A stretch of 64,000 bases of DNA from Squalus acanthias (lineage: Eukaryota). Below the pieces are notes generated by a model. It ran no database searches. It worked only from the letters and a program-made list of their open reading frames with translations, and had not been told where the DNA came from. Where the stretch lies: NCBI GenBank assembly GCA_030390025.1, contig CM059432.1, positions 95,606,001 to 95,670,000 of the forward strand, in the 5' to 3' direction. The translations under genes were made by a program, and so were the position numbers. Each line of letters opens with the position of its first letter. Positions within the stretch are counted from its first letter, which is position 1. This document shows positions 10,487-62,773 of the stretch, piece by piece.

Positions 10487-12401
10487 ATGTCCACGATCAA
10501 GCAAAAGTGTGCACCTCGGTTTGATGCGCCCTCCCTCCAAGCTCTGGTGCACGGAGCCAGATGTAATAAGAAGGTGCTGTTCCCTTCCTCAGGGAGAAAA
10601 AAGCCACCCCAGCAGACACAAGCTGTGTGGCTGCAAGTGGCCCAGGAGGTCAACTCCATTTCGCTGAGCCGCAGAACCTGGCTGCAATGCAGGAAGAGGT
10701 TTCATGATCTTCTCCGCACAGGAAAAGTGAGTATGACTTTCCCATCACCCTCAATCTGATCCCCATCACCTCTCCTCACCAGCACTCTGCTTTGCCAACC
10801 TCTTCCTCCATATGCCACTTGACACTTACATGCCTGCACCCTTACCCATTCCCTCTCTCTCTGTGGTCACATTCACTTAACTATTTGACCATGCAGCCCT
10901 CACACTCCCTATCACTGTGATGCCATGATGACAACAACAACTTACAACACACTGGAAGGGTCCTTTGTCTCCTAAGTATCTATGCTATGGATTATCGACA
11001 CTCACTCCTTCATTCTCACTCAAACTCCACTTGTGTCCCTCATTGCAGGAAAAGAGAGCCCACAATAAGAGGGAAAGAGCCATGACAGGAGGAGGGCCAC
11101 CCTCAGTAGCCCAGCTCACCGCCTGGGAGGAGGCGGCCCTGGAAATCGCCGGGATCGAGGAGGATTCCTAAGTGGGGGACGGACAGATGGGCGCATCGCA
11201 GCAAGCTGGTGACAATAGTTTGGCATCTCTCTCATTGACATTGCATGAGTCACTGATAATGAATCTGATGCTCTAACAGATTGACTTATGATCATCTGCA
11301 CTATTCAATGTTCATGTAACCTTGACCTCACATCTCTAACTCTATCCTTTACTCCCCCACAGGACCATTGAAAGCCCCCGTCCCCACTGTCCAGGAGGAA
11401 GAGCCTGAGCTTCCAGACTCCTCAGAGGAAACTGCAACCTCTGAGGGCACAGCCTCAGCAGAATTCAGCGCAGACACTCACCTCGGTGGGACCATCGCGA
11501 GATAGATTAGTGTTGGCACCCGGTGTTTCACAGCTCACAAGTGAGCAACAGCAGATGGTGGAGACAGGGACAGCAGTGGAGAGTCCTCGTCGGAGGGCGC
11601 AGGGCTCTGCCAGCTCGGCTCAGCTGCATGTCGACCCTGTGCCTCCGGGTCCATGCAGAACGAGAGCGGTGCTGGAACTCCAGGAACAGGTGCAGGAGTC
11701 TCTGGCAGGTTTTGTCTCCAGGGTCGCTGCGAGTGTCGAGCGAATGGAGGAGTCCATCGCGAACATGAGCAGAGCCTTTGTGGAGGCATTGGCGCATGAA
11801 CACATCACCACGGAAAGGATGGCAACCTCCGTGGAAAGGATGGCTACAGTAGAGGAGAGGATGGCTACGGCCATGGAGGAGCTAAGTCGCCAGAGTGTAG
11901 AAAACATGGTCATTGTTCAGAATAGACTGGCATCTCTTGAGGAGCGATGGTCAGCTACTGAGCATAGAAACCAGACCTTCATGGAAGTCCTCTGGAGTAG
12001 GACTTCCAGTGCAGAAACGGGTCCTCATGGCCCCCCTGAAGAGCAGCAAGGTGCTGTCAAGCCATTTGCTAGCTCTGAAGTGGTGCTGGCCCATGGTGGC
12101 AGACAACAAGGAAGTGGGGGCTCCTCTCCAAGCGCTCAAACGACCATGCCACTGCAAAGTCCTCGGTCAGAGCCCCACCAGAGTCCTCACCCAACTGAGA
12201 TGGGCGCTTTAACCCCTGCACAGCCACAGGAGCAGCAGACTGTTGCCGAGCCCTCACAGGTTCGCAACCCCCAGAGGACGGCCGCCAAAGGTGTCGAGGC
12301 AGGAGCAGCAAGAAAGTGAACAAGGGGCCTCCACATCTGCTGAAGCCACAGGGGAAGCACCATGTAGGAGCACGCGTAAGAGGAAGATAATGCACAAGTA
12401 G
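10487..12401 (+). pseudogene. Harbinger Myb/SANT-like DNA-binding protein gene, 3 predicted exons (10487-10726, 11049-11208, 11363-12401), disrupted
   Basis: Exon 1 encodes a MSANTD/NAIF1-type domain (APRFDAPSLQALV...WLQVAQEVNS...RRTWLQCRKRFHDL) and ends at GTGAGT. Exon 2 (acceptor TTGCAG) encodes EKRAHNKRERAMTGGGPP...LTAWEE, with an in-frame TAA at 11169-11171. Exon 3 (acceptor CCCCACAG) needs frameshifts near 11480 and 12270. Confidence 0.85.
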
Positions 12402-12661
12402 TCACAAGGGTAGTCACTTGGGTGTTATGTTGTGTTTATTTTTGAAATGCCACCAGTTGCTTGTTGTGATAAAAATTTCTGATGGCAAACTGTTGTGAAG
12501 TTGTGGCCTGTGTCATTTCGCAAATGGGACTTCCACATTGAGGGCTTAGAGCGACTTGCAATTGTCAGTATGGTGGTCAGAGTGATAGGAATCCGCAGGT
12601 TCTTGGCCATTGTCGATGGTCTGGTAAGAAGCTGCGAGGCAAAAGTGCTTGATTGTCTCGG

Positions 12662-13876
12662 CTAAGCAAATCTGGCCAAGATGACTGCGTCCCTTGCATC
12701 CCTGGCAGCAATGTGCTCGCATGCTGCTGCCGCTGGTTGATGTGCCTCTTCAAGCTGTTCGTTGTCGCTCTCCTCCTCATCTGAGGAGGCTATGTGATGA
12801 GCCACTTGTTCCTCAGGCATCTGCAAGCCACGATGCTGTGCCATGTTGTGAAGTGCACAGCAGATAACGACCATTCTGGAGACCCTGGCTGCTGAGTACT
12901 GCAGGGCTCCACCTGATCTATCAAGGCATCTGAAGCGCATCGTCAGCAAGCCGATGGTTTGTTTGATTATGGATCTGGTGGAAATGTGGCTGGAGTTGTA
13001 GCGCTCCTCAGCTTCGTTGGATGGGCTCCTCAATGGCGTCATTAGCCATGTCTTCAGGGGATAGCCCTTGTCTCCAAGTAGCTATCCGAAAAGTTGGTCT
13101 GGCGGACTGAAGAGCGGAGGCACACTAGACTGGCGTAGGATGAAGGAGTCATGGCAACTGCCAGGGTACTTGGCGCAAACATGCAAAATTTCCTTCTTGT
13201 GGTCACACACCAGCTGTACGTTGAGGGAGTGGAAGCCCTTGCGGTTGACAAAAATACCTGGATTGTGATGGGGTGCCTTAAGTGCCACATGTTTGCAGTC
13301 AACGATGCCCTGCACCCTTGGAAAGCCTGCCAGATTGTCAAACCCAACCGCACACGCAGTTACACTGGCTTGATCCTTGGAGAAATTGATGTAATTGTGA
13401 GCGATGGCAAAGAGGGCATCGGTTACCTGCGTGATGGAAGTGTGTGCGGCCGCCTGGGAGACGCTGCTGATGTCTGCTGCTGATCCCTGGAATGAGCCTG
13501 AAGCCAAAAAGTTGAGTGCGGTGGTGATTTTGACAGCCACTGGTAAGGGATGTCCACCTGCTCCTCTGGGCTCCAGCTCTTGCTGCAGCATTGCGCAGAT
13601 GTCACCCACTACCTCTCGCGAAAGTCAGAGCCTCCTTTGGCACTGCTGCTCAATCATGTTGAGGTAGCTGATCCTCTGTCTGTAGACCCTGTTTTGAGGG
13701 TATCTCCTGCGCTGGTGCCTTCTGGCCTGTGCAGCTTCAGGTGGGTGAGCAGCAGCTTGGAGCTCCTGCTGTTGCTCCTGCAGTTGGTGCTGCTGTTGTT
13801 CAGGGTTCTGCTGCTGTCGCGGCTGGTCTTCGTCCGAATCTGATGTCCAGGAGGAAAGGAAATAAATGGTTCCCAT
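12662..13876 (-). pseudogene. Harbinger DDE transposase (HARBI1-like, 404 codons) with two in-frame stops
   Basis: Three ORF-track segments lie in one frame, with stops at 13625-13627 and 13082-13084. Motifs: [73 protein letters not shown] and CCALHN. Confidence 0.93.
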
Positions 13877-29800: not shown

Positions 29801-30518
29801 CCTACTGCCCACTGAATCAGTAGTCGTCCCTGTTGAACACCACTTGGTAGAAGTAGCAAGGGCACAGAATGTACTCTGGGTGGAGGGCTTCAATGTCCAT
29901 CACCAAGAGTGGCTCGGTAGCACCACTACTGACTAAGCTGGCTGAATTCTGAAGGACATAGCTGCCAGACTGGGCCTGCGGCAGGTGATGGGAGACCCAA
30001 TACGAGGGAAAAACCTACTTGACCTTGTCCTCGTCAATCTACCTGTTGTATCCACGGCGTTGTTCGGCACTACCACAGTGCTAAACGGGACAGATTCAGA
30101 ACAGATCTAGCAGCTCAAAACTGGGCATCTATGCGGCGCTGTGGGCCTTCAGCAGCAGCAGCAGCAGAATTGTATTCCACCACAATCTGTAACCTCATGG
30201 CCTGGCATACCCCTCACTCTACCACTACCATCAAGCCAGGGGACCAACTCTGGTTCAATGAGGAGCGTAGAAGAGCATGCCAAGAGTAGCACCAGGCATA
30301 CCTAAAAATGAGGTGCCAACCTGGTGAAGTTGCAACACAGGGCTACATGCAAGCTAACAGCAGAGGCAGCATGCTATAGACAGAGCTCAGCGATCCCACA
30401 ACCAATGGACCAGGTCCAAGCTCTGTAGACCTGCCACATCTAGTTGCGAATGGTGGTGGACAATTAAACAACTAACGGAAGGAGGAGGATCTATAAGCAT
30501 CCCCATCCTCAATGATGA

Positions 30519-30713
30519 TGTGGAGATGCCGGTGTTGGACTGGGGTGGACAAATGTGAGAAGTCGCACGACACCAGGTTATAGTCCAACAGCTTTATTTG
30601 AAATCACAAGCTTTCGGAGCGCTGCTCCTTCGTCAGGTGACGAAGGAGCAGCGCTCCGAAAGCTTGTGATTTCAAATAAAGCTGTTGGATTATAACCTGG
30701 TGTTGTGCGAATT
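30519..30713. mobile_element. Penelope-derived inverted terminal-repeat module
   Basis: 79-bp inverted arms (30557-30635 / 30638-30716, 3 mismatches), flanked by the direct repeat CTCAATGATGA (30508-30518, 30714-30724). Matches the end of the GIY-YIG-bearing element at 61130-61725. Confidence 0.85.
30604..30640 (-). ncRNA. Minimal type I hammerhead ribozyme motif
   Basis: UCAC-CUGACGA-A-GGAGC-AGC-GCUCC-GAAA-GC-UU-GUGA. It has the conserved CUGANGA/GAAA/UH core, a 4-bp stem I, a 5-bp stem II and a palindromic AGCU mini stem III. Confidence 0.78.
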
Positions 30714-31449
30714 CTCAATGATGACTGACATTGTTTCATGTTGGAGCTTTCAGAGTGGTAAGATGTGGATTTGCACCTGTGATTGTCCCACATAGTTACT
30801 GTATTGAAAGATATGGGAGTAGAGACTGATTACTTTCTGACAGAGGATTGTTCAAGACCTGTAGTGTTGTGTACTTTCAGCCTGCCCTCTTAAGGATTAG
30901 GTACATGCAGAAGGTAGACTTCAGCAAGGGAAAAATGATGAGAAATAACATATTTACAATTTTTTTCAGCTAAACAAAGACAGTCAATGGAAATCTCTAT
31001 GATGTAATAATGGCATAGCAATATTTTATTGTTGTAAAATTTTTTAACCATTTTGTTCCAATTGTATGGGGTAGGTTCTGGATTTGTGACGGAGGTGAAA
31101 TCTTCATTGCAATTTATATTTGGCGAACTCCAACTCAACTCAACTCAACCATTCAGTATTTTCAAATAAAGGAGAGCTGGGCAAGGGGAGATCAGTGGGG
31201 AATGGGCGAGTGACTGGGAGGATGCATGATGGACATCCTTTCCTTCTGAGAGTTTTAGGAAATACAGAATGCTGAATTCATTTTCCAATTTTCTTATTTG
31301 AAGGAGACACTGAGGGTAGCACAGTGAGTTAGAACACTGCATCCTATAAATTAATGTTGGTGATATTCGTAGATGAAGACTTAACCTGCTTGTATGACAA
31401 TTATCTGACAACTGTTTTAATGGCAGGAAGACCATTTTAAAACAAAATT

Positions 31450-43740: not shown

Positions 43741-45157
43741 AAGGGAAATCCTGTTTGACAAACCTATTGAAGTTCTTTGAGGATGTAACTAGTGGAGTAG
43801 ACAAAGGGGAACCGGTAGATGTGGTGTATCTGGATTTTCAGAAGGCCTTCGATAAGGTCCCATACAAGAGGCTGGTGAACAAAATTAGCCATGATGTGGA
43901 GATGCCGGTGTTGGACTGGGGTGGACAAATGTGAGAAGTCGCACAACACCAGGTTATAGTCCAACAGCTTGTGATTTCAAATAAAACTGTTGGACTATAA
44001 CCTGGTGTTGTGCGACTTCGAACAAAATTAGGGCACATGGAATTGGGGGTAATATATATACTAGCATAGATTGAGAATTGGTTAACAGACAGAAAACAAA
44101 GAGTAGGGATAAACGGGTCTTTTTCAGGATGGCAGGCTGTGACTAGTGGGGTACCGCAAGGATCGGTGCTTGGGCCCCAGCTATTCACAATCTATATCAA
44201 TGATTTGGATGAGGGGACTAAATGTAACATTTCCAAATTTGCTGCTGATACAAGGCTAGGTGGCAGTGTTAGTTGTGAAGAGGCTTCAAGGGGATCTCGA
44301 CAGGCTCAGTGAGTGGGCGAGAACATGGCAGATGGAATAAAATGTGGATAAATGTGAAGTTATCCACTTTGGTAGAAAAAACAGAAAGGCAGAGTATTTC
44401 CTAAATGGTGAAAGATTGGGGAATGCAGATGCTCAAAGGGACCTGGGTGTCCTTGTACATGAGTCACTGAAAGTGAATGTGCAGGTGCAGCAAGCCATTA
44501 GGAAGGCAAATGGTATGCTGGCCTTCATTACAAGAGGATTTGAGTACAGGAGTAAAGAAGTCTTACTCCAATTATATAGGGCCTTGGTGAGACCACATCT
44601 GGAGTACTGTGTACAATTTTGGTCTCCTTACCTAAGGAAGGATATACTTGCCATAGAGGGAGTGCAACGAAGGTTCACGAGATTGATTTCTGGGATGGCG
44701 GGACTGTCGCACGAGAAGAGATTGAGTAAACTAGGCCTGTATTCTCTTGAATTCAGAAGAATGAGAGGGGATCTCATTGAAGCATACAAAATTATTACAG
44801 GGCTTGATAGGGTGGATGCTGGGAGAATGTTTCCCTTGGCTGGGGAGTCTAGAACCAAGGGCCACAGCCTCAGGATAAAGGGTAGGCCATTCAGGACGGA
44901 GATGAGAAGAAATTTCTTCACACAGAGGGTGGTGAATCTCTGGAATTCTCTACCCCAGAGGGCTGTGGAGGCTCAGTCATTGGGTATATTCAAAACAGAA
45001 GTCGATAGATTTCTGACTAGTAAGGGCATCAAGGGATATGGTGATAGGGCCGGTGAATGGAGTTGAGGCAGAAGATCAGCCATGATCTCATTGAATGGCG
45101 GAGCAGGCTCGAAGGGCCGAATGGCCTACTCCTGCTCCTATTTCTTATGTTCTTATG
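43741..45157 (+). mobile_element. CR1 LINE, 5'-truncated
   Basis: KGKSCLTNL and [12 protein letters not shown] motifs, a 240-aa C-terminal ORF (44344-45066) and a TTCTTATG tail. Confidence 0.95.
43889..44019. mobile_element. Penelope-derived inverted-repeat module lacking the hammerhead core
   Basis: Nearly identical to 30519-30713 but missing the central 71 bp; perfect 12-bp TSD GAACAAAATTAG (43877-43888, 44020-44031) inside the CR1. Confidence 0.88.
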
Positions 45158-60727: not shown

Positions 60728-61129
60728 TTTAAAAAGAGCAGGAGCGGAGAGCCAGAACGGCAGAGTACTTTAAACAGCGAGGACCTAATTGGAGACACCA
60801 GCAGCAGCGGCGGGACCTTCTACGATTTCCAAAAAAATAAGGTGTGACGTCACAGGGCAGCAGTGTGCGGACCTGCGGGAGGAACGGAGTCGGAGACCGG
60901 GGATAAAGGCAGCGTGGAGCAGAGGCCTGGGTGTCTGAGTGAGCAGACTACCTGCGAGAGAGACAATCGGCAAGCGACACAACGAAGGAGTGACGTCAGA
61001 ATTCAAAGGTGTCGCTGGCACAAGGGAGCTGAGAGGTGAGTATAGGGTGAGTAGTTGTAGTAATTTTATTTGTTCTGTTTTGAGTATATTTCTGCTAAGT
61101 CATTCATAGCCCATCTAATAAAGAAAAAT

Positions 61130-61725
61130 GAGAAGTCGCACAACACCAGGTTATAGTCCAACAGATTTATTTAAAATTACAAGCTTTCGGAGCTATCGCC
61201 CCTTCTTCAGGTAAAGTTACAATGAGTGAATCTACAAAAGTTCACAGAATATAAACACAGAAACTGCAGAGATACAATCTTTCCTTACATCAAAGACATA
61301 CCAAGAGCACAGCCAAGACAATGAGATGTGTCCCAGGGGGTCCAACGTGTCAAATCCTGCTGTCTGCAGCAGATCTCTCTCCATATCCCTTCCCCTCTCT
61401 CCGTCTTTTTTGGGTTTGTTTTTTTGTTTGTTTTTTAAAAACTGGAAAGACAGACAACGATGTCAAGTCACGTTCTGTAGCGTGACATGAACCCGATATC
61501 CCTATTGAGGCCGTCCTCATGAGTGCGGAACTTGGCTATCAGTTTCTGCTTGATGATTTTGCGTTGTCGTGTGTCTCGAAGGCCGCCTTGGAGAACGCTA
61601 ACCCACAGATCCGAGGCTGAATGCCCTTGACTGCTGAAGTGTACCCCGACTGGGAGGCAACCATCCTGCCTGGCGATTGTTGCGCGGTGTCCGTTCATAC
61701 GTTGTCTCAGTGTCTGCATGGTCGA
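61130..61725 (-). mobile_element. Penelope-like element 3' fragment
   Basis: GIY-YIG C-terminal half (61468-61719: QTLRQRMNGHR...PVGVHF...H...GLN), followed by a 3' UTR containing a hammerhead and the terminal repeat. Confidence 0.88.
61177..61214 (-). ncRNA. Minimal type I hammerhead ribozyme motif
   Basis: UUAC-CUGAAGA-A-GGGGC-GAUA-GCUCC-GAAA-GC-UU-GUAA; intact core and stems, on the same strand as the GIY-YIG ORF. Confidence 0.8.
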
Positions 61726-61820
61726 GGGAAGTGCTGATTGGTGGGTAGCTGTTGAGTGTTTCTTGTTAAGTTTTAAGTTTATTTCTGCTAAATTACATCA
61801 AGAGTCTGGTAAATAGAGGC

Positions 61821-62773
61821 ATGGCAGGGAAGCTCAGTCCCATGATTTGCACATCCTTTGCCATGTGGGAAATCCTGGATGCTTCTTGTGGCCTGGACGA
61901 CTACGTGTGCAGGAAGTGTCGCCAACTGCAGCAACTCGAGCTCCGAGTTTTGGAGCTTGAGCGGCAGCTGGAGTCACTACAGTGCATCCGCGAGGCTGAG
62001 AAATACTTGGAAAGCACGTTTCTGGAAGTGGTCACCCTGCAGCCTCAGAATGTGCAGGCAGAGAGGGAATGGGTGACCCCCAGACAGAGAAGGAGGACCA
62101 GGCAGGTAGGGCAGGAATCCCCAGAGTGCATCTCGCTCACTAACCGGTTCACAGTTCTGGAAACTGTTGGGGGTGATGGTTCTCTGGGGAGAGCAGCCAG
62201 AGCCAAGGCCACGGCACCACGGGTGGCTCAGCTGCATGGGGTGGGGGAAGAAGAAGAGTGGAAGAGCAATAGTGATAGGGGATTCATTGATTAGGGGAGC
62301 AGATAGGCGTTTCTGTGGACGCAGATGTGACTCCAGGATGGTATGTTGCCTCCCTGGTGACAGAGTCAAGGATGTCACTGAGCGGCTGCAGGACACTCTG
62401 AGGGGGGGAGGGTGAACAGCCAGAGGTCGTTGTCCATATCGGTACCAACGACATCGGCAAAAAGAGGAATGAGGTCCTGCAGGCAGACTATAGGGATCTA
62501 GGAAAGAGATTAAAAAGCAGCACCTCAAAGGTAGTAATCTCCGGATTACTCCCGGTGCCACGTGCTAGTGAGTACAGAAATAGGAGGATAGAACAGATGA
62601 ATGTGTGGTTGGAGAGATGGTGCAGGAGGGAAGGCTTTAGATTCCTGAGGCACTGGGGCCATTTCTGGGGAAGGTGGGACCTGTACAAGCCAGACGGGTT
62701 ACACCTCAACAGAGCTGGGACCAATATTCTCGTGGGGAGGTTTGCTAGTGCTGTTGGGGAGGGTGTAAACTAG
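61821..62773 (+). pseudogene. CR1 ORF1 (zinc finger/coiled coil + SGNH esterase), disrupted
   Basis: CTSF...YVCRKC, a leucine-zipper-like LQQLELRVLELERQLESL, and SGNH blocks IVIGDS, GTND and DGLHLN; broken by a frameshift and a stop. Confidence 0.88.

Follow-up and report, generated by a model that had tools for sequence, protein, structure and literature searches.

The module and its surroundings

The module lies at positions 30508–30724 of the window, the 64-kb stretch of DNA analysed here, and comprises an insert of 195 bp held between two copies of an 11-bp direct repeat, CTCAATGATGA. A script finds this repeat exactly twice in the window, on the plus strand at 30508–30518 and 30714–30724, one copy at each end of the module as had been predicted from the sequence; the chance of an 11-mer repeat within 20 × 20 offsets is, as a rough figure, ∼1.5 × 10−4. 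We take the two copies as the left and right target-site duplications. Element and target share four letters at each end of the insert: the last four letters of the left duplication, ATGA, are also the end of the element's tail, and the last four letters of the second arm, CTCA, overlap the right duplication.

The insert is dominated by two inverted arms. Arm 1 (30556–30635) carries the element in sense orientation on the minus strand; arm 2 (30638–30717, plus strand) is an inverted copy that has no tail and whose hammerhead core is disrupted at C3. Pairing between the arms extends from 30635/30638 to 30556/30717, over 80 bp with a 2-nt loop and three mismatches, at 30562, 30569 and 30583; the original prediction had the loop and the mismatches right and the arms, at 79 bp, one short. 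No other hairpin with arms of at least 22 bp and a loop of at most 10 nt was returned by a scan of the 64-kb window. At the apex is a mini-palindrome, TCA-GG-TGA (30633–30640), that is native to the upstream sequence of the element, the family extending past 30640. Outside arm 1 only, a segment of ∼40 bp (30515–30555, minus strand), delimited by alignment and by contig ends, corresponds to the 'tail' of Penelope-like elements (PLEs) as the term is used in excerpts of PMC3846280 and PMC8557442. Its outer end is at 30515 and its inner end, from contigs and alignment, at ∼30551–30560, giving a length of about 36–45 bp. The left-arm letter at 30569 is private when compared with the family in contigs of public runs, and the three differences between the arms, spread over 160 bp and with no fewer than this one private to the locus, would fit decay after insertion.

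The family gives five arm-sized matches at three places in the window. Copy 2, whose start at 43889 had been correctly anticipated, is an asymmetric fold-back of 131 bp (43889–44019) with its tail on the left, its arms joined at AGCTT and no hammerhead core. It is flanked by a 12-bp target duplication (43877–43888 and 44020–44031, plus strand), and its right junction is without microhomology. The insertion host is a LINE reverse-transcriptase frame that is open through the reconstructed empty site. Copy 3 (61129–61727, minus strand) is a 5′-truncated PLE without an inverted arm. It comprises, in order, the end of an endonuclease frame (61725–61474), a 259-bp spacer, a minimal hammerhead motif (61214–61177, minus strand) and a terminal 84 nt, 89% identical to the module, that form a tail-less end. 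A target duplication of 6 bp or more was looked for at copy 3 and none was found. The original prediction had overlooked the duplication of copy 2, its missing core and the link of copy 3 to a PLE frame. Copy 3 sits between two similar diverged repeat stretches (61040–61790), just upstream of a 174-residue frame (61770–62294) that has no Pfam match and that we presume to be LINE ORF1-like.

The left flank of the module (30180–30518) is a high-copy repeat which, from its translation, we take to be LINE-like. In contigs this repeat family continues with GCGGA after 30517. The sequence from 30725 onward is unrelated to it, and a continuation was looked for in the window and found to be absent. 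The host repeat ends precisely where the duplication lies, and this reflects a junction that was already present at the nick site or else a deletion beside the insert. Elsewhere in the window a PIF/Harbinger-like element (11372–13624) matches DDE_Tnp_4 in a pair of minus-strand frames separated by a stop codon (12662–13624), which face a 315-residue plus-strand frame without a Pfam match.

Affiliation with Penelope-like elements

As far as sequence comparison can establish, the module represents the 3′ terminus of an endonuclease-positive PLE in a shark-like genome. An extremely truncated Penelope insertion was one of the two options originally raised for this locus, and it is supported by copy 3, in which the same end is joined to the remnant of a PLE frame. 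A search with the copy 3 peptide, the last 82 residues of that frame, matched 30 proteins among 64 candidates, those with named sources being from sharks; the best match, at 89% identity, is a reverse-transcriptase protein of a shark (P0001). Pfam RVT_1 is present in P0001 and P0014. A GIY-C..C-YIG pattern is found in 15 of the 30 matched proteins, P0001 included, and is preceded in 12 of the 15 by a CX2-5CxxC linker; the linker region lies outside the fragment preserved in the window. The 85-residue window fragment itself matched no Pfam family, and the Pfam GIY-YIG model, which was not reached by P0001 or P0014, matched P0024 only.

In excerpts of PMC8557442 the CX2-5CxxC linker marks the Neptune and Nematis clades and is absent from Penelope/Poseidon. 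Judged from the linker of its homologues, the shark family is likely to be of Neptune/Nematis type. Because copy 3 differs from the module by 11%, and may thus represent a sister subfamily, the connection of the module to the open reading frame and to this clade is indirect.

Several characteristics of PLEs are seen in the module itself, namely a hammerhead in the terminal region, a one-sided tail and an inverted, 5′-truncated copy with a palindrome at the junction. The length of the target duplication also varies among the copies (11 bp in copy 1, that is the module, and 12 bp in copy 2, with none found for copy 3). Linkage to a frame encoding reverse transcriptase together with a GIY-YIG endonuclease at its C terminus is provided by copy 3 and not by the module.

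This architecture and this type of ribozyme have been described before, and the module works like an 'inverted pLTR plus tail' PLE insertion. Excerpts of PMC3846280 report PLE insertions with inverted pLTRs, a 31-bp tail, target duplications of 8–10 bp and palindromes at the inverted junction, and inverted pLTRs and short 3′ extensions appear as routine curation notes in an excerpt of PMC8969392. The module shares with the examples in the excerpts of PMC3846280 and PMC8557442 the head-to-head copy, an optional tail of 30–40 bp at one end, the junction palindrome, a variable target duplication and heavy 5′ truncation. It differs from them in that no open reading frame lies between its ends, the whole insert being 195 bp, and in its shark-like vertebrate host; the duplications of 11–12 bp in the shark copies compare with 8–10 bp in the rotifer examples of the PMC3846280 excerpt. 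A further counterpart is PAc, a Poseidon PLE of Anolis carolinensis (PMC11167929), in which two internal end points likewise bound a tail. The outer end lies ∼93 nt downstream of the predicted hammerhead cut in the module and, by subtraction from the numbers in PMC11167929, 85–92 nt downstream in PAc. PAc belongs to Poseidon, whereas the protein relatives of copy 3 carry the linker that Penelope/Poseidon lack according to the PMC8557442 excerpt. A published description of this shark PLE family was not found in the literature searched, a search whose scope lay outside Repbase/Dfam and subscription journals.

Nine predicted shark host proteins contain a PLE endonuclease end (P0002, P0010, P0015, P0017, P0023, P0026, P0028, P0029 and P0030), among them XRCC5, PPP1R12A and septin 5a isoforms; exonised insertions or errors of annotation are the probable cause. 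When metagenome contigs were scanned at the protein level, three distant plant-metagenome loci came up, at 29–31% identity, and were not used.

The hammerhead motif

The original prediction of a complete minimal hammerhead on the minus strand at 30640–30604 is upheld both by a purpose-built descriptor and by the core features. Read from 30640 to 30604, the motif, which has the type I features given in excerpts of PMC4209133, consists of a 4-bp helix I (UCAC/GUGA), CUGACGA, an extra A, a 5-bp helix II that opens with G-C, GAAA, a palindromic AGCU and U17. All core positions are present (C3-U4-G5-A6-N7-G8-A9, G12-A13-A14-A15.1 and U16.1-H17, with H17 being U), as are the further hallmarks of minimal motifs: a base after A9, the G10.1-C11.1 pair, a palindromic 15–16 region and a helix I of 4–5 bp. 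Cleavage is predicted between 30608 and 30607. The descriptor matched twice in the window, at 30640–30604 and at 61214–61177 in copy 3, both on the minus strand, and once in 100 simulated 64-kb windows. In the plus-strand mirror copy C3 is replaced by G (GUGACGA), as predicted; the accompanying statement that this copy has no stem I was slightly too strong, as UCA/UGA could pair there, with a G-G closing pair. When copies 1 and 3 are compared, both bases of one helix I pair have changed, as has a single base of one helix II pair, which, with two sequences, is only suggestive.

The comparison with the Rfam hammerhead covariance models that had been proposed gave no hammerhead match, either across the whole window (E up to 1) or on 82 bases (E up to 10). 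This is unsurprising, in our view, since the minimal motifs of PMC4209133 were defined with a relaxed descriptor of its own. The single Rfam match in the window, to MIR396, scored 37.1 bits against a cut-off of 80 and was rejected as a generic signal of long hairpins, and two Rfam matches on the 82 bases were taken as chance. The exact hammerhead pattern had no matches in metagenome contigs and none in viral contigs. Helix II, at 5 bp, is shorter than the 7–8 bp of the Schistosoma motifs in the excerpted PMC4209133, whose main text does not name sharks among the metazoan PLE minimal hammerheads, although its supplements may list shark motifs.

The hammerhead motif is real; self-cleavage by copy 1 is unlikely. 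The RNA of the whole module folds as a long hairpin at −132.9 kcal/mol, and to force helices I and II costs 53 kcal/mol in the whole module compared with 1.4 kcal/mol in a single arm. A read-through RNA would therefore bury the motif in the 80-bp duplex, and the hammerhead in copy 1 is predicted to be silent. A one-core dimer is computed at −18.7 kcal/mol, compared with −10.8 kcal/mol per monomer, and the arrangement in trans is not favoured. Position 17 is U in the module; C accounts for ∼10% of the depth in X1 and 26% in X3 (two of the runs described below), depth not being copy number. Hammerheads with U17 cleave more slowly than those with C17. A U17 triplet is included among the cleavable NUH sites in an excerpt of PMC3138052. 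PLE minimal hammerheads were inactive as monomers and weak as dimers in the excerpts of PMC4209133, and the anole PLE hammerhead cleaved only when protein was added, with RNA-seq ends absent at its cut site (PMC11167929). Given this behaviour, failure of the monomer or dimer to cut in Mg2+ would not count as a refutation of function.

Origin of the hairpin

Contigs from four of 24 listed public runs were aligned to one arm plus the left flank; runs with small word shares were left out as evidence. The alignments comprise 16,103 contigs from X1, 9,393 from X3, 1,798 from X19 (a run only guessed to be RNA) and 6,640 from X6, contigs of the flanking repeat included. Results on contig ends are based on 24 of 546 rows of loose ends, with counts taken among the matches listed, and summed contig depths were not treated as copy numbers. 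Of the X1 contigs, 436 overrun the ends of the aligned stretch and are unsorted.

Among the matches listed, loose ends fall before 30515 in at least 127 X1, 114 X3, 20 X19 and 65 X6 contigs, and the flanks outside this position are unlike one another (agreement 0.37–0.41). A second end falls at 30556 in 23 X3 contigs, again among the matches listed. The loose ends behind 30640, in contrast, share an AGTG start in 66 X1, 50 X3, 11 X19 and 68 X6 contigs among those matches, and the element thus runs past 30640, so that the apex is not an element end.

Comparison of the centres of the two fold-backs in the window and of a few contig joints shows that they vary. Besides the centre of copy 1 and the AGCTT of copy 2, there is one that is 5 bp further out, deduced from the letters of one X1 contig, and another, in a single X3 contig, that connects 30552 with 30640 across opposite strands. 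This last joint, seen in one of the four runs, has a depth of 135 compared with ∼20–30 for long, single-looking contigs, and some fold-back junctions may accordingly be multi-copy. It would set a bare tail against the sense hammerhead arm. In a further X3 contig, with a joint of 30640 to 30515, the ∼126-bp end seems to be repeated head to tail around a spacer of 26 nt, and in another, with 30607 to 30564, the piece ends precisely at the predicted cut and carries one extra C; neither joint has an assigned strand. No loose ends at the predicted cut site were found among the 24 of 546 rows, although one X3 joint does start at 30607, and truncation at the cut site is not visibly a main class in these rows.

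Site 30592 is polymorphic, with T in about half of the X1 depth and C in both arms of copy 1. The right arm of copy 2 has the T allele at the equivalent site. Assuming one template, its CTT therefore belongs to the right arm and its junction lies upstream of the cut, and we did not accept that copy 2 records a cDNA stopped at the cut. This junction also fits a deletion that arose afterwards between short repeats.

We conclude that the module consists of two head-to-head PLE 3′ ends between an 11-bp duplication, and that it was very probably built in a single, very short insertion. Since the family passes the apex and the centres differ between copies, the hairpin appears to have been built at each insertion and not moved as a unit. 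As to how, two-sided priming is in our estimate an even call among the possible routes. The PLE protein would nick both target strands 10–11 bp apart, and from each 3′-OH a cDNA would be primed on PLE RNA that had not been cleaved, at the outer (tail) start on one strand and at the inner start on the other. Synthesis would end after ∼120 and 80 nt, a little beyond the hammerhead, and the native TCA-GG-TGA palindrome would serve to join the two cDNAs. We regard the hammerhead as a passenger from the pseudo-LTR of the parent element. The four letters common to target and element at both ends of copy 1 are as priming on RNA would need, and the template would have been uncut, or re-ligated, at the predicted cut site, because both arms run through it. 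This route would also explain the asymmetry of copy 2 without a second event. It has a precedent in the anole PLE protein, which both cleaves and extends the two strands, initiates at a pair of internal positions delimiting the tail and inserts independently of hammerhead cleavage; PAc is inserted from uncleaved RNA, as proposed here for the module (PMC11167929).

A route that we regard as possible but rather doubtful is self-priming by fold-back, in which the tail-primed cDNA would stop at GGTGA, fold back on TCA and copy itself, an endonuclease cut near the inner site then resolving the product. The excerpt of PMC3846280 (Arkhipova et al.) ascribes the junction palindromes to such self-priming rather than to two-sided priming, and the excerpt of PMC8557442 ascribes the tail to endonuclease resolution; the presence of C at 30592 in both arms of copy 1, where about half the X1 depth has T, also speaks for this route. 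The fold would nevertheless need a 2-nt loop, and the cDNA ending at 30640 has no terminal hairpin in DNA folding, in which two such ends pair at −3.7 kcal/mol, both being weak. Moreover, the tail-less arm of copy 2 has central sequence that is missing from its tail arm, which after one fold-back would need a later deletion, and tail-less ends correspond to reverse-transcription start sites in PMC11167929.

The other option originally raised, a non-autonomous, ribozyme-bearing unit that is mobilised by itself, is not supported. Such a unit, retrozyme- or SINE-like, would be transcribed as a hairpin and moved whole by the PLE machinery, and we consider it unlikely in spite of the X3 opposite-strand joint at high depth, the X3 contig suggestive of a head-to-tail repeat and the existence of non-autonomous PLE derivatives in excerpts of PMC7229834, PMC8557442 and bioRxiv 10.64898/2026.07.22.740005. 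The common outer start of copies 1 and 2, both bounded by target duplications, had been read as a hint of a discrete unit; the outer ends of PLEs sit at reverse-transcription start sites (PMC11167929), however, so that any PLE insertion should show fixed outer ends, and these would not reveal a discrete family. It is the centre, not the outer end, that is informative in separating a unit from truncation, and the centres differ while the family continues past the apex. In addition, copy 2 has no ribozyme core, and in a whole-unit RNA the hammerhead is predicted to be fully masked. The non-LTR retrozymes of the excerpted PMC7229834 and bioRxiv 10.64898/2026.07.22.740005, the latter a survey with one chondrichthyan in it, resemble the module in being short and non-coding, with a type I hammerhead and an origin in PLE pLTRs, but they form head-to-tail tandems with mostly canonical hammerheads and circular RNA, whereas the module has one intact minimal motif in a head-to-head arrangement and the window contains no tandem array of this unit. 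A miniature inverted-repeat DNA transposon (MITE) is hardly credible. The module is short, palindromic, of high copy number and flanked by direct repeats, as a MITE would be, but its inverted repeat is not terminal, being offset by ∼40 bp on its left side, the duplications are of 11 bp in one copy and 12 bp in another where a MITE has one fixed length, and the sequence is the end of an element that encodes reverse transcriptase, copy 3 by itself largely refuting this reading. Palindromes can also arise in library preparation, and no single contig spans the aligned stretch among the matches listed. An assembly or library fold-back artefact is still very improbable, given that the arms differ at three sites, with a letter at 30569 private to the left arm, that a clean target duplication lies on both sides of the unit, and that 63–66% of the sampled words of 30400–30850 occur in five runs from two samples, one of them possibly the source of the assembly.

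The single locus matters little in itself, and the interest lies in the family, with its very many tiny, readable products of the PLE insertion step. If transcribed, such hairpins, with their 80 bp, would already be double-stranded RNA, and heavy A-to-I editing of a Penelope family is reported from a lizard in an excerpt of PMC5625713. There are hints of remobilised units or cleavage footprints in the multi-depth X3 joint, the X3 piece ending at 30607 with its extra C and the junction of copy 2, for which a start at the cut site is one possible reading. That fold-backs without an open reading frame are remobilised as a hairpin, pLTR-only non-autonomous family, with some arms ending exactly at the scissile bond, seems to us improbable; if true, such arms would be a genome-wide record of cleavage by the PLE minimal hammerhead in vivo. 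The centres, tails and arm differences across the copies could distinguish two-sided priming from fold-back, and copies of this kind could show whether PLE hammerheads cut in vivo.
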